Origin: Mustelus asterias
Taxonomy: Eukaryota
DNA: 35,552 nucleotides
Assembly: GCF_964213995.1 (NCBI RefSeq)
Contig: NW_027590197.1
Location: 744,001 to 779,552 of the forward strand
Direction: 5' to 3'
Positions within the stretch are counted from its first letter, which is position 1. Every line of letters starts with the position of its first letter. The position numbers were made by a program, and so were the translations under genes. Under the pieces are notes generated by a model. That model was not told where the DNA came from, did not search any database, and saw nothing but the letters and a program-made list of their open reading frames with translations. Shown piece by piece: positions 339 to 28,750 of this stretch.

Positions 339-648
339 AGTTAGATGGGCAGAACAGTGGCAAGTGGAATTCAACCCTGAAAAGATTAGGTAATTTTTGG
401 AGGACGAGCAATGTAATGGAATGCGCAATGAATGGTCAGATCCTAGGAAGTACAGAGGATCAGAGGAACCTTGGTGTGCATGTCCATAGATCTCTGAAGA
501 CAGTAGGACAGTTACATAAGGTGGTTCAGAAGGCACATGGGATACTTGCCTTTATTAACCAAGGCATTGAATATATGGCTGTAGAGTTTCACATTCTAAT
601 CAGTATTCTGTCACTTGATTTTGTGCCTCTGTATGCCCTGTTTCCACT

Positions 649-685
649 CCATCTGACGAAGGAGCAGCGCTCCGAAAGCTTATGG
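649..685 (+). ncRNA. Minimal type-I hammerhead ribozyme motif
   Basis: CCAT-CTGACGA-A-GGAGC(agc)GCTCC-GAAA-GC-T-T-ATGG: intact core, stem I CCAT/ATGG, stem II of 5 bp, palindromic stem III (AGCT). Confidence 0.75.
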
Positions 686-807
686 TATTTGCTACCAAAT
701 AAACCTGTTGGACTTTAACCTGGTGTTGTGAGACTTCTTACTGTGTTCACCCCAGTCCAACACCGGCATCTCCACATCATGGCCCTGTTTGAGAGCAGAT
801 ATCCACT

Positions 808-844
808 CCATCTGACGAAGGAGCAGCACTCTGAAAGCTAATGG
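808..844 (+). ncRNA. Minimal type-I hammerhead ribozyme motif, second tandem copy
   Basis: CCAT-CTGACGA-A-GGAGC(agc)ACTCT-GAAA-GC-T-A-ATGG: core intact, stem II weakened by CpG-type changes. Confidence 0.7.
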
Positions 845-1654
845 CATTTGCTACCAAATAAACCTGTTGGACTTTAACCTGGTGTTGTTAAAACTCTTAC
901 TGTGTTTACCCCAGTCCAAGGCCACATCATTGAATATAAGGGCAGGGAGGTTATGATGGAGCTGTCTAAAACACTGGATAGGCCACAGCTGGAGTACTGT
1001 GTGCAGTTCTGGTCGCCACACTATAGGAAGGATGTAATTGCACTGGAGAAGGTGCAGAGGAAATTCCCCAGGGTGTTGGCTGGGCTGGAGTGTTTCAGCT
1101 ATGAGGAGAGGCTGGAGAGGCTGGCATTGTTTTTCTTGGAGCAGAGAAGGGTGAGGGGGACCTGATTGAGGTGTATAAAATTCTGAGGGGCACAGATAGG
1201 GGGCATAGGAAGGAACTTTTCTCTTTAGTCGAGAGGTCAATAACCAAGGGCATGGATTTAATTTCAGGAGCAGGAGGTTTATAGGAGAAATGAGGAGAAA
1301 TCTTTTGACCCAGAGGGTCATGAATCTGGAACTCAGTGCCTGAAAGAGTGGTAGAGGTGGGAACCTTCACAACATTTAAGAAGAATTTAGTTAAGCTTTT
1401 GAAATGCCTTAGCATACAAGGTTACGCACAAAGAGTGGAAAATGGGGTTGGAATAGAACGGTCCTTGATGGCCGGCACAAACACGATGGGCCGAAGGGCC
1501 TCTTTCCATGCTGTAAAACTCTATGACCACCCACGTTGGCAGCAAGTTCAATATCATCATCAGTCACAACCCCCCTGTATCTTCACTAACTGAATCAATC
1601 CATTTAAAACATTCTTAGTTGAGGTATGTAGCCATATTTCTGTTTGGCCGGCAT

Positions 1655-4127: not shown

Positions 4128-4268
4128 CAGAGCTCTGAGAGTGGATTCTAATGGTTATAATCCTACCCAAGCATGGCCAGTGAAAAATCAGAGCTCAACT
4201 GGGGACAGGACAGGTCTCTTACCTGCCATTTGGAAACTAAGAACAAGAAACATATCGATAAAATAATT

Positions 4269-4446
4269 AGAGAATAGAGCCAATGTTTCAAGCCTGAATG
4301 ACACTTCGTAAGAGCTCTTATGAAGGGACATCTAGACTCGAAATATTGGCTCTATTCTCTCTCCACAGATGCTATCAGACCCGCTGAGATTTTCCAGCAT
4401 TTTCTGTTTTCTTTTCAGATTCCAACACCCACAGTATTTCACTTTT
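4269..4446 (+). mobile_element. Penelope-type short element, family 2, with a 92-bp palindrome (4269-4360) made of two degenerate hammerhead motifs
   Basis: Arms agagaatagagccaat / attggctctattctct centred on agag|ctct, then ccacagatgct..cagacc.gctgag.tttccagcattttctg. Confidence 0.65.
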
Positions 4447-10085: not shown

Positions 10086-10820
10086 ATGGAGAAACCATGG
10101 AAATGTGGAGACTGTGGGAAGGGATTCAGAGCCCCATCTGAGGTGGAATCTCATCGACGCAGTCACACCGGGGAGAGACCGTTCAGATGCTCCACTTGTG
10201 GGAAGGGATTCAATCATTCATCGAATCTGCTGAGACACCAGCGAATTCACACTGAGGAGAGGCTAGTCACCTGCTCACAGTGTGGGAAGGGATTCAGAGA
10301 TTCATCCACTCTGCTGACACACCAAAAGGTTCACACTGGGGAGAAGCCATTCACCTGTTGTGTGTGTGGAAAAGGATTCAGAGATTCATACACTTTGCTG
10401 ACACACCACCTAGTTCACACTGGGGAGAAGCCATTCACCTGCCCTGAGTGTGGAAAGGGATTCACTCAGTCATCTAACTTGCTGACACACCAGAGAGTTC
10501 ACACCGGGGAGAGGCCGTTCAACTGCTCAGTGTGTGGAAAAAGATTCACTCAGTCATCCGCTCTCCTGACACACCAGCGAATTCACACTGGAGAGAGGCC
10601 GTTCACCTGCTCTGTTTGTGGAAAGAGATTCACTCTGTCAGCCACCCTGATAGCACATCAGCGCATTCACACTGGGGAGAGGCCTTTCACCTGCTCCGTG
10701 TGTGGGAAGGGATTCACTCAATCATCAAATCTGCTGAAACACCAGCAAATTCACTTGGACACAAGCCTTTCACCTGCTCTGAGTTTGGGAAGTGATTCAG
10801 TGATTCATCCCAGTTGCTGA
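10086..10820 (+). CDS. C2H2 zinc-finger protein unit 2 (8 intact fingers; ninth finger frameshifted)
   Basis: accATGg start, 8 x C-x2-C-x12-H-x3-H with TGERP-type linkers. After 10755 the relic finger [25 protein letters not shown] is in another frame. Confidence 0.8.
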
Positions 10821-11144
10821 GACACCAGAGAGTTTACAAGTGATAACAGGGGTCGAATTCTGTTGTACTGGCCAGTGTAATATTGTAATAGGTGGATCTT
10901 CATTTTAAAAATTCAAATTGTATAACCTGAAATGTGAGAAACTGCAGAGCTGGCAGAAATTGTTTAAACAAACAACTAATTTTTAAAAGCTACTGGACAT
11001 CATATTCTGCCAAACTCCAGCTCAAAAATAAGGCTCATTATATAATCTGATCAAGATCAGCAACAGAGAAAGCTGCAGACTCGATGGGCTGAATGGCCTC
11101 CTTCTGCACTGTAAGATTCTATGATTCTATGAGTTCACAAAATT

Positions 11145-11828: not shown

Positions 11829-11917
11829 ACTCACCTGATGAAGGAGCAGCGCTCCAAAAACTTGTGATACCAAATAAACCTGTTGGATTTTAACCTGGTG
11901 ATGTGAGACTTCTAACT
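11829..11917 (+). mobile_element. Penelope-type repeat, family 1, with an inactivated hammerhead motif (11831-11867)
   Basis: TCAC-CTGATGA-A-GGAGC(agc)GCTCC-AAAA-AC-T-T-GTGA (GAAA>AAAA), then accaaataaacctgttgga. Confidence 0.75.
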
Positions 11918-16627: not shown

Positions 16628-17638
16628 ATGGAGAAACCATGGAAATGTGGGGACTGTGGGAAAAGATACAAAGTCCCATCCCTGCTGGAAGCTCATCGGC
16701 GCAGCCACACTGGGGAGAGACCATTTACTTGCTCTCAGTGTGGGGAGGGATTCACTCGGGTATCCCATCTGCAGAGACACCAGCGAGTTCACACTGGGGA
16801 GAAACCGTTCACCTGCTCTCAGTGTGAGAAGGGATTCACTGATTTATCCACCCTGCGGACGCACCAGCGAGTTCACACTGGGGAGAGGCCGTTCACCTGC
16901 TCTCAGTGTGAGAAGGGGTTCAGTCAATTATCTAACCTGCAGACACACCAGCGAGTTCACACTGGGGAGAGGCCGTTCACTTGCTCTCAGTGTGAGAAGG
17001 GATTCACTGATTTATCCACCCTGCGGACGCACCAGCGAGTTCACACTGGGGAGAGGCCGTTCACCTGCTCTCAGTGTGAGAAGGGGTTCAGTCAATTATC
17101 TAACCTGCAGAGACACCAGCGAGTTCACACTGGGGAGACACCGTTCACCTGCTCTCAGTGTGGGAAGGGATTCACTCGGTCATCCAGCCTGCAGGCACAC
17201 CAGCGAGTTCACACTGGGGAGAAGCCGTTCACCTGCTCTCAGTGTGAGAAGGGATTCACTGATATTTCCACCCTGCGGAAACACCAGCGAGTTCACACTG
17301 GGGAGAGGCCGTTCACCTGCTCTCAGTGTGAGAAAGGGTTCAGTCAATTAGCTAACCTGCAGAGACACCAGCGAGTTCACACAGGGGAGAGACCTTTCAC
17401 CTGCTCTCAGTGTGGGAAGGGATTCACTGATTTATCCACTCTGCGGAGACACCAGCGAGTTCACACTGGGGAGTGGCCATTCACCTGCTCTCAGTGTGGG
17501 AAGGGATTCACTGATTTATTCACCCTGCGGTGTCACCAGCGAGTTCACACTGGGGAGAGGCCGTTCACCTGCTCTCAGTGTGGGAAGGGATTCATAGTTT
17601 CATCCCAGCTGCTGAAACACCAGCGAGTTCACGAGTGA
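16628..17638 (+). CDS. C2H2 zinc-finger protein unit 3 (12 fingers, homogenised 84-bp array)
   Basis: accATGg start; 12 intact fingers, 11 with FTCSQC; acceptor ttttacag at 16298. Confidence 0.9.
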
Positions 17639-21583: not shown

Positions 21584-22564
21584 ATGGAGAAACCGTGGAA
21601 ATGTGTGGATTGTGGGAAGGGATTCGGTTTCCCATCACAACTGGAAGTTCATCGGCGCAGTCACACTGGGGAGAGACCGTTCACCTGCTCCGTCTGTGGG
21701 AAGGGATTCACCCATTCATACAACCTTCTGACTCACCAACGGGTTCACACTGGGGAGAGGCCGTTCACCTGCCCTGTGTGTGGGAAGGGATTCACTCGCT
21801 CATCCCACATTGTGACACACCAACTTGTTCACACTGATGAGAGAATGTTTACATGTTCTGACTGTGAGAAGAGTTTTAAATGCAAAAAGGATCTGCTGAC
21901 ACACCAACGAATTCACACTGGGGAGAGACCGTTCACCTGCTCTGTGTGTGGGAAAGGATTCATTCAGTCATCCCACTTGCAGACACATCAACTTGTTCAC
22001 TCTGATAACAAACTTTTTAATTGTTCCCACTGTGCGAAGAGCTTTAAAAATAAAAAGGATCTGCTAACGCACCAATATGCTCACACTGGGGAGAGGCCAT
22101 TCACCTGCTGTGTGTGTGGGAAGGGATTCAGCCGTCCATCTGCCCTATTGAACCACCAGAGAATTCACACTGGGGAGAGGCCCTTCACCTGCTCAGACTG
22201 TGGGAAGGGATTCACTCGTTCATCCAACTTATTGAATCACCAGCGAGTTCACACTGGGGAGAGGCCGTTCACCTGCTCTGTGTGTGGGAAGGGATTCAGT
22301 CAGTCATCCAACCTGCTGACACACCAGAAAGTTCACAGTGCGGAGAGGCCACTTACCTGCTCTGTCTGTGGGAAGGGATTTTCTCATTTATCTTATCTTC
22401 TGAAACACCAGCGAGTTCACACTGGGGAGAGGCCGTTCACCTGTAATGTCTGTGGAAAGGGATTTATTCAGTCATCCCACCTGCTAACACACCAGCGAGT
22501 TCACAAACGACTGCAAGGTTTGGATTCTACTCTTAATGATGCTGTTAATCATATCCAGGACTGA
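21584..22564 (+). CDS. C2H2 zinc-finger protein unit 4 (11 fingers plus an 18-aa C-terminal tail)
   Basis: Intact 326-aa ORF; acceptor at 21225; AATAAA at about 22612. Confidence 0.9.
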
Positions 22565-27272: not shown

Positions 27273-27277
27273 TAAAC

Positions 27278-27433
27278 AGTAAGAAGTCTCACAATACCAG
27301 GTTAAAGTCCAACAGGTTTATTTGATCGCACGAGCTTTCGGAGCACTGCTCCTTCATCAGGTGAATGGCCACTCACCTGATGAACCTGGTGTTGTGTGCC
27401 CACCCCAGTCCAACGCCGACATCTCCACGTCAT
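27278..27433. mobile_element. Penelope-type repeat, family 1: minus-strand copy (27278-27364) joined to an internally deleted plus-strand copy
   Basis: Homologous to 645-780 in both orientations. Confidence 0.8.
27328..27364 (-). ncRNA. Minimal type-I hammerhead ribozyme motif
   Basis: Reverse complement TCAC-CTGATGA-A-GGAGC(agt)GCTCC-GAAA-GC-T-C-GTGC: intact core, CUC cleavage triplet. Confidence 0.75.
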
Positions 27434-27696
27434 CTTATGGACTGCAGATTGATTCTCTGGAGAATCCTGTTCTTTCTCTCTATCAACATTCCTCTGCAAG
27501 TTTTATTTCCTTCAAGTACCCATCCAATTTCATTTTGAAATGATTGAATCTTCTGTTCCACCATCCTCATAGGCAGCGAGTTCTAGATCATGTGCTCTCC
27601 CTACCTAAATATAAATCTTCCTCAAATCCCTGCTCTACCACTACTCAAGTAATGTCCTGTATGTTACACTTTTATCCAGTATTATAGACATCTGTC

Positions 27697-28750
<1,054 letters not shown>

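Follow-up and report, generated by a model that had tools for sequence, protein, structure and literature searches.

The window analysed here, a stretch of 35,552 nucleotides from Mustelus asterias, carries near its left end a 352-bp insert (576-927) which breaks a LINE ORF2-like reading frame and is flanked by the two copies of an 11-bp target-site duplication (Table 1). The frame resumes beyond the insert, and around it the identity to a LINE ORF2 protein is 45-65%; we take this LINE to be of the CR1 type. The joint of the empty site, in which position 564 is followed by 928 with 11 shared letters, was found in contigs of runs X19 and X21. The original prediction had described an insertion of about 355 bp, flanked by a direct repeat inside a CR1; the repeat and the LINE context stood, and the length had to be corrected to 352 bp.

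Two hammerhead cores lie within the insert at a spacing of 159 nt (653 versus 812) and share an AGCU palindrome, exactly as had been claimed. In the first motif, CUGACGA (653-659) is followed by an extra A660, by GAAA (674-677), by GC and by the doublet U680-U681; all five pairs of stem II (661-665/669-673) can form, and stem I (649-652/682-685) has 4 bp. The second motif consists of CUGACGA (812-818), GAAA (833-836) and U839-A840, with stem I at 808-811/841-844, and its stem II (820-824/828-832) contains a C.A mismatch and a G.U closing pair at 10.1-11.1, where the first motif has the G10.1-C11.1 pair. Both present the features of the min-HHR, namely the CUGANGA/GAAA/UH core, the extra nucleotide at 9-10.1, the palindromic 15.2-16.2 and the short helix I. 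With a helix I of 4 bp and a loop 2 of 3 nt they are minimal, without the loop 1-loop 2 contacts of canonical type-I hammerheads. A search of the window with Rfam, which had been proposed as a check, returned no hammerhead match, even at E 10, a result that is uninformative for minimal motifs.

Table 1. Features of the insert and of its immediate flanks, in window coordinates.
Feature	Position	Strand	Basis and remarks
Outer target-site duplication, left copy CATTGAATATA	565..575	+	In CR1-type (presumed) LINE ORF2 fragment; empty-site joint 564->928
5' part of the host element, a Penelope-like 3' UTR/pLTR of subfamily B truncated on its 5' side	576..643	+	3 mismatches to B copy L028 versus 8 and a gap to A copy L023; colinear with uninterrupted paralogue L383
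Left half (CTG) of the symmetric target that the endonuclease probably prefers (CTG-N17-CAG when uninterrupted)	629..631	+	Model from 82 ordinary insertion sites; intact in L383
Inner target-site duplication, left copy GCCCTGTTT	635..643	+	Single copy in L383
Nested insert of 138 bp: pLTR end of subfamily A, truncated on its 5' side, whose 30-40-nt tail stops at the ORF start codon (CATCATG)	644..781	+	2 mismatches to A copy L023 versus 8 to B copy L028; absent from L383
First minimal hammerhead, undamaged, with UU as cleavage doublet and a cut predicted after 681	649..685	+	Motif and stem pairing
Inner target-site duplication, right copy GCCCTGTTT	782..790	+	Sequence comparison
Host element, 3' part, subfamily B	782..927	+	3 mismatches to B versus 14 to A
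CAG half of the same target, now displaced	796-798	+	Target model
Minimal hammerhead 2, stem II damaged, predicted cut after 840	808..844	+	Identical changes in single-hammerhead paralogue L383
Outer target-site duplication, right copy CATTGAATATA	928..938	+	Sequence comparison

The surroundings of the insert are rich in repeats. Upstream of the LINE fragment lies another repeat (about 30-310), presumably SINE-like. Two further fragments of the same Penelope-like family occupy 11832-11917 and 27276-27438, and a third hammerhead core is found at 27360 on the minus strand, with a UC doublet and a C-G closing pair. Arrays of C2H2 zinc fingers with an 84-bp period are located at 2184-2939, 10163-10828, 16706-17632, 21661-22505 and 28406-28745, the first of them with an in-frame stop. 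A near-perfect hairpin of about 90-110 bp (4257-4368), giving weak, below-gathering scores to several miRNA models, is probably a small fold-back repeat. The window belongs to a block for which at least 14 paralogues exist on small contigs.

The parent Penelope-like family

A genome search with the insert yielded 42 scored matches from 2,399 candidates. Most of the matches spanning the whole insert have both window flanks, and the others cover only its first 205 nt or so, contain one hammerhead and run upstream into a GIY-YIG-like ORF. In these other copies the upstream ORF encodes a reverse transcriptase followed by a C-terminal GIY-YIG endonuclease, and it is broken in every copy seen. Its reverse transcriptase matched Pfam RVT_1 above the cut-off (38.2 bits, E 1.7e-9); its endonuclease region, in which YIGET and the C-C-H-H residues are visible, scored 19.4 and 18.2 bits against Pfam GIY-YIG, under the curated cut-off of 22.6, with an E of 0.0013 for the 19.4-bit match. 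The description of the insert as Penelope-type, with minimal type-I hammerheads, is borne out, the motifs being the usual 3' end (pLTR) of this family. A degenerate 32-nt core pattern had at least 25,094 matches in the genome and none for the reversed control, so that the hammerhead motif exceeds chance; the pattern of the 3' tail had 41,672 matches. The flank of one copy (L027:1-1115) contains open frames, which we take to resemble integrase and envelope-like fragments of LTR retroelements.

Copies of the family carry a 30-40-nt tail, 5' truncations, inverted 5' copies and target-site duplications, and their hammerhead is situated about 113-125 nt upstream of an ATG at which the tail ends; the same ATG opens an ORF (MATIDT..) in L048-L064. 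A full-length, decayed pLTR-ORF-pLTR copy (L107, 1304-4503) was identified, with its 5' pLTR at 1304-1513 and its 3' pLTR reaching 4503. Its cores at 1389 and 4376 set the distance from hammerhead to hammerhead at 2,987 nt, and its two pLTRs belong to two subfamilies, which suggests that reverse transcription jumps from one RNA to another during tandem formation. The 3' ends of the family cluster at two places about 37 nt apart (window equivalents 742-745 and about 781), a tail signature explained in the accessible text of PMC11167929. Between reverse transcriptase and endonuclease, L024, L029 and L107 have the motif CHSNLCKTC, which conforms to the CX2-5CxxC linker given as common to Neptune and Nematis in the available part of PMC8557442; judged from sequence, this CX4CxxC linker points to an element of the Neptune/Nematis type. 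The hammerheads of the insert belong to the minimal motifs already known from Penelope pLTRs (accessible portion of PMC4209133), and the insert itself works like an EN+ Penelope-like element, of which it represents a fragment.

Compared with what the available texts report of other systems, the family is conventional in most respects. With the Neptune/Nematis EN+ elements (Craig et al. 2021, PMC8557442; Arkhipova et al. 2013, PMC3846280) it shares the reverse transcriptase with C-terminal GIY-YIG, the CX4CxxC linker, 5' truncation, partial tandems, the inverted 5' pLTR, the one-sided 30-40-nt tail and target-site duplications, and the same texts mention one Penelope family inserted secondarily into another in Adineta. 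The preferences reported there are AT-rich or microsatellite, whereas the present family has a symmetric CTG-N17-CAG target, duplications of 12-14 bp and, unlike them, a fixed recurrent target in its own pLTR. With the anole Poseidon element PAc (Frangieh et al. 2024, PMC11167929, consulted in its accessible portion) it has in common two reverse-transcription start sites bounding the tail, and it would share the cutting and extension of both strands, a predicted dimer, a proposed cutting in its own pLTR and a hammerhead needing protein help. PAc differs in using AT-rich ATT sites instead of CTG..CAG and in having a hammerhead that overlaps the start codon, which here lies about 113-125 nt downstream. 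The min-HHR of metazoan Penelope-like elements (Cervera & De la Pena 2014, PMC4209133) differ from those of the present family, in which helix II is 5-6 bp, and the available text of that study does not describe same-strand pairs about 160 nt apart arising by nesting. An open-access literature search returned nothing relevant on hammerheads of shark Penelope-like elements and no described self-target or symmetric target for this class.

Nested insertion and target choice

When compared with copies of the two subfamilies, the insert divides into three parts, B, A and B (Table 1), separated by the two copies of a 9-bp inner duplication. This duplication, the different subfamilies of the halves and the damage to core 2 were all absent from the first reading. 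A paralogue (L383, G000:C104) whose flanks are 96-97% identical has the same outer duplication and contains the B copy alone, uninterrupted; it already carries both stem II changes of core 2, so the damage to this core predates the nested insertion. The host 3' part (782-927) has a 9-nt deletion near its end which is not found in the closest paralogues L002-L004. The exact junction occurs 15 times in the genome, and 13 of these occurrences have the window flanks and are segmental duplicates; both cores are broken in 8 of the 13, as read from the alignment rows. Genome searches with the insert and with the junction revealed no dispersed family of the 159-nt unit, and among the first 100 of the 25,094 core matches listed, inspected by eye, none has a same-strand neighbour within 300 nt.

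The simplest history is a B insertion, its decay, the insertion of A into B and a segmental amplification. A subfamily-B end with one hammerhead entered the CR1-type LINE with an 11-bp duplication and acquired the two stem II changes; the 138-bp A end then inserted 31 nt upstream of the hammerhead, as L383, with its empty site, and the inner duplication show; and segmental duplication multiplied the region, with loss of both cores in most duplicates. Target-primed reverse transcription is the likely origin of such a nested pair. We consider it very probable that the locus is a dead nested insertion of truncated Penelope 3' ends and not a mobile ribozyme unit. The inner duplication, at 9 bp, is below the family mode of 12-14 bp, a difference that could be explained by TTT microhomology where the 5' joint lies. 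The B-only state of L383 could in principle result from precise excision between the 9-bp repeats instead of being ancestral.

The same arrangement recurs elsewhere. The tail was found 5-35 nt before a hammerhead in 58 matches, which, after merging 13 duplicates and one array, represent 45 loci. At 32 of the 45, the host resumes at one site, 29-32 nt upstream of the core. In the adjoining 31 positions on the upstream side 19 matches were found, mainly long tails or unrelated joints, and in the stretch that follows the core there were 25, representing 20 loci. A host left part with a duplication of 7-14 bp was recovered at 24 of the 45 loci, and locus-private rare variants are present in both duplication copies at L092, L099, L100 and L101. 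The pattern of the left junction had 40 matches, and 23 of the 30 fetched have a resumption-like match within 1.5 kb (two of them being the insert's own sequence). Of 66 ATG-N0-3-CCYTRTTT junctions, 55 run into a pLTR and 11 do not; for the gapless ATG|CCYTRTTT form the figure, counted by eye, is 39 of 40, where 0.05-0.3 would be expected under random placement. Penelope-in-Penelope insertion thus repeatedly makes hammerhead pairs 153-168 nt apart which mimic retrozyme dimers: two intact cores at this distance are present at 20 of the 45 loci, and they differ in 19 of these 20, mainly by subfamily, unlike rolling-circle copies of one monomer. Six loci (L086, L087, L090, L122, L123 and L125) have a weaker nested site, which precedes the core by about 22 nt, and a spacing of 153 nt. 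The junction common to L015 and L037 had hinted at a master element in which the 3' end is an A+B duplication; this was discarded, L037 being an independent nesting whose insert measures 753 bp and whose duplication measures 12 bp. The host left part and the duplications likewise ruled out that GCCCTG marks a fixed RNA 5' end, or transcription start.

A model of the target was built from 234 loci, selected through patterns within the element and independently of the target. Among 105 ordinary insertions with a detectable duplication, 71 have one of 12-14 bp (mode 13 bp), and the consensus of the flanks is CTG(G/T)N-[13]-N(C/A)CAG. At 30 sites with 13-bp duplications, CTG is present in 13, CAG in 20 and both in 8, against a background of 188 of 374,111 positions for CTG and CAG together. 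The family would therefore seem to prefer CTG-N2-[13 bp]-N2-CAG, as expected of a dimeric GIY-YIG enzyme nicking both strands 13 bp apart, and by analogy with the anole element, for which both-strand cutting and a predicted dimer are reported in the accessible text of PMC11167929, the symmetry of the target fits such an enzyme. The B pLTR contains an exact CTG-N17-CAG at -31, its best-scoring site, within the top 0.27% of the background; the same position scores below background in subfamilies A, C and D. A second high-scoring site, predicted at -22/-23, matches the minor 153-nt class. The B 3' UTR would thus offer a near-optimal target, whose TG is also identical to that in the ATG end of the template tail. 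With at least 8,230 intact B targets, 38-39 hits at the exact position were seen, and a hand calculation predicts from about 3 (flank matrix) to 13-25 (motif counts). General preference together with the TG microhomology covers much or all of the hotspot; an extra self-recognition at the B site is possible and not needed. The hotspot and the target rule are modestly new. Three insertions (L214, L217 and L220) share one site of another repeat family, CCCTTATTTTTAAACAGTG, possibly a second hotspot outside Penelope-like elements.

Hammerhead function and conservation

Several observations concern the ribozyme in the family at large. The closing pair 1.1-2.1 of stem I covaries between subfamilies (U-A in 147 and C-G in 106 of 267 copies); the extra A is present in 266 of 267 copies and GC in 257, the core letters having been fixed by the search pattern. 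In 22 distinct rows, picked as common variants, 3 of 9 pairs change on both sides and pairing stands at 94.9%, versus 25-47% when the strands are slid, and the main U-A/C-G change may represent one or few events. This covariation, a feature of the sequences, is consistent with selection in active masters. In inserted copies, conservation of the core does not exceed that of a control stretch: 5 of 210 core positions are changed versus 12 of 780 in the control, for 30 copies chosen on an upstream motif. Excess conservation of the core is therefore absent from these copies, one of the outcomes that the original prediction had itself taken to speak against its retrozyme family. The hammerhead would be selected in active master lineages for processing pLTR-to-pLTR transcripts of about 3 kb, probably as a dimer with protein help, and would be a passenger in inserted copies.

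The 5' ends of copies show no pile-up at the cut: 7 of 92 truncated copies start exactly there within a flat distribution (p 0.49), in a test on 100 sampled copies over a 14-position stretch from which 8 were dropped as internal indels and whose anchor left out some subfamilies. By subfamily, 13 of 39 copies of type C start at 0 to +2, with no clear peak, and in a tail-selected set of 102, one of 20 truncated copies starts at the cut. At loci with a tail-to-3'-pLTR junction the count is about 5-6 of 20, confounded by the TG microhomology. Head-to-tail arrays of 3-4 units of 91-111 nt, made of the pLTR end without the core, were observed at L283, L284, L285 and L289; those of L283-L285 start at the predicted cut site or within 2 nt of it.

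For the window itself, a constrained double-hammerhead fold is free of pseudoknots and all its helices can pair, at a cost of 12.4 kcal/mol above the ensemble, the folding energies leaving out tertiary contacts and protein help. If the locus is transcribed, such a fold would be possible but disfavoured. In it, cleavage after 681 would depend on a UU doublet and on the stem II that is damaged, so that poor release of the 159-nt monomer is predicted; the dimer geometry used here comes from the available part of PMC4209133 and from general knowledge. The 159-nt circle has a folding energy of -35.6 kcal/mol, which among 200 shuffles corresponds to a z of -1.3, a self-pairing that does not clearly stand out.

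Competing explanations and significance

Two other origins can be proposed for the pair in the window, and both appear very improbable. Template switching would produce B, A and B in one step, the B RNA being left for the tail of an A RNA at the TG microhomology and then resumed, with no second DNA insertion. Template jumps are common in the family, as the different subfamilies of the pLTRs of L107 and the tail-to-internal joints at many positions indicate; L383, however, which at the same outer site has only the B copy, largely refutes this reading. Elsewhere, target duplications with locus-private variants flank the inner piece, inner pieces often have their own inverted 5' end, and some (L152, L156, L159, L394) look opposite in orientation. 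The other origin, and the one put forward by the original prediction, is a non-LTR retrozyme whose tandem hammerheads free a 159-nt monomer, which circularises and is re-inserted after rolling-circle reverse transcription. The locus resembles the retrozymes described in the accessible texts of Cervera & de la Pena (2020, PMC7229834) and Li, Clavereau & Pollet (2026, bioRxiv 10.64898/2026.07.22.740005) by its two direct type-I hammerheads (150-450 nt apart in those elements), by being non-coding and by its relation to Penelope-like elements, and it formally contains two head-to-tail hammerhead units. The available text of the latter study proposes a derivation from pLTRs, reports retrozymes from one chondrichthyan genome and gives one of nine predicted dimers as cleaved in vitro. 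The pairable, pseudoknot-free double fold, the 20 or more loci with two intact cores and the repeated identical units of L084 speak in the same direction. Those retrozymes, however, are homogeneous tandem units with mainly canonical hammerheads, expressed as circles, whereas the present locus is a chimeric one-off dimer of minimal motifs: its exact junction is essentially one segmentally multiplied locus, its units differ by subfamily where a circular template would yield identical ones, its paralogue L383 has a single hammerhead, both cores are lost in most duplicates, and no homogeneous unit has been amplified as such. Tandem Repeats Finder did not report a 159-nt repeat in the window, the self-pairing of the circle does not clearly stand out, and in the full-length copy the natural spacing is 2,987 nt, with a GIY-YIG/RT ORF upstream. 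The proposal of a shark retrozyme family with a 159-nt monomer is consequently not supported.

Why the hotspot exists is a separate question, and a further proposal made for it does not conflict with nesting. In true homing, the endonuclease or its RNA would read its own pLTR beyond the short consensus, and selection would keep the site so that copies land beside a promoter or a partner ribozyme. The near-exclusive continuation of gapless junctions into pLTRs, an excess of about 1.5-13 fold over the general-preference estimate and the cutting in vitro, by the anole protein, of a target from its own ORF-pLTR junction (accessible text of PMC11167929) agree with it. The site is nevertheless confined to subfamily B, self-hits make up about 0.1% of tails (about 42 of 41,672), and the ratio needs no homing since about 0.6 non-Penelope junctions are expected and one was seen, an estimate from 8 background hits. 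We regard homing as unlikely. Rather less likely still, nesting at the symmetric site 31 nt upstream could act as a recurrent dimer factory that provides a minimal ribozyme with its necessary partner and in which some of the 20 or more intact pairs release circularising RNAs of about 160 nt and retrozymes are born from pLTRs, the 157-nt array of L084 being an incipient one.

With nested Penelope insertion as the preferred reading, the locus itself is an ordinary fossil. Its interest is that nested Penelope insertions can underlie tandem hammerheads called as retrozymes, because a target at a constant position ahead of the ribozyme creates look-alike dimers of near-constant spacing again and again. 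The CTG-N2-[13 bp]-N2-CAG target and the pLTR hotspot provide a precise substrate for examining how Penelope-class GIY-YIG enzymes cut (as a putative dimer making two nicks 13 bp apart), a poorly understood step, and the hotspot offers a concrete testable route from pLTR to retrozyme. The nearest thing seen to an incipient retrozyme-like array is L084/L112 (G000:C3:13497677-13497888), which has three same-strand hammerheads 161 and 157 nt apart; its last two units, 157 nt long, are near-identical with the same junction, and nesting alone does not explain this array of B units.
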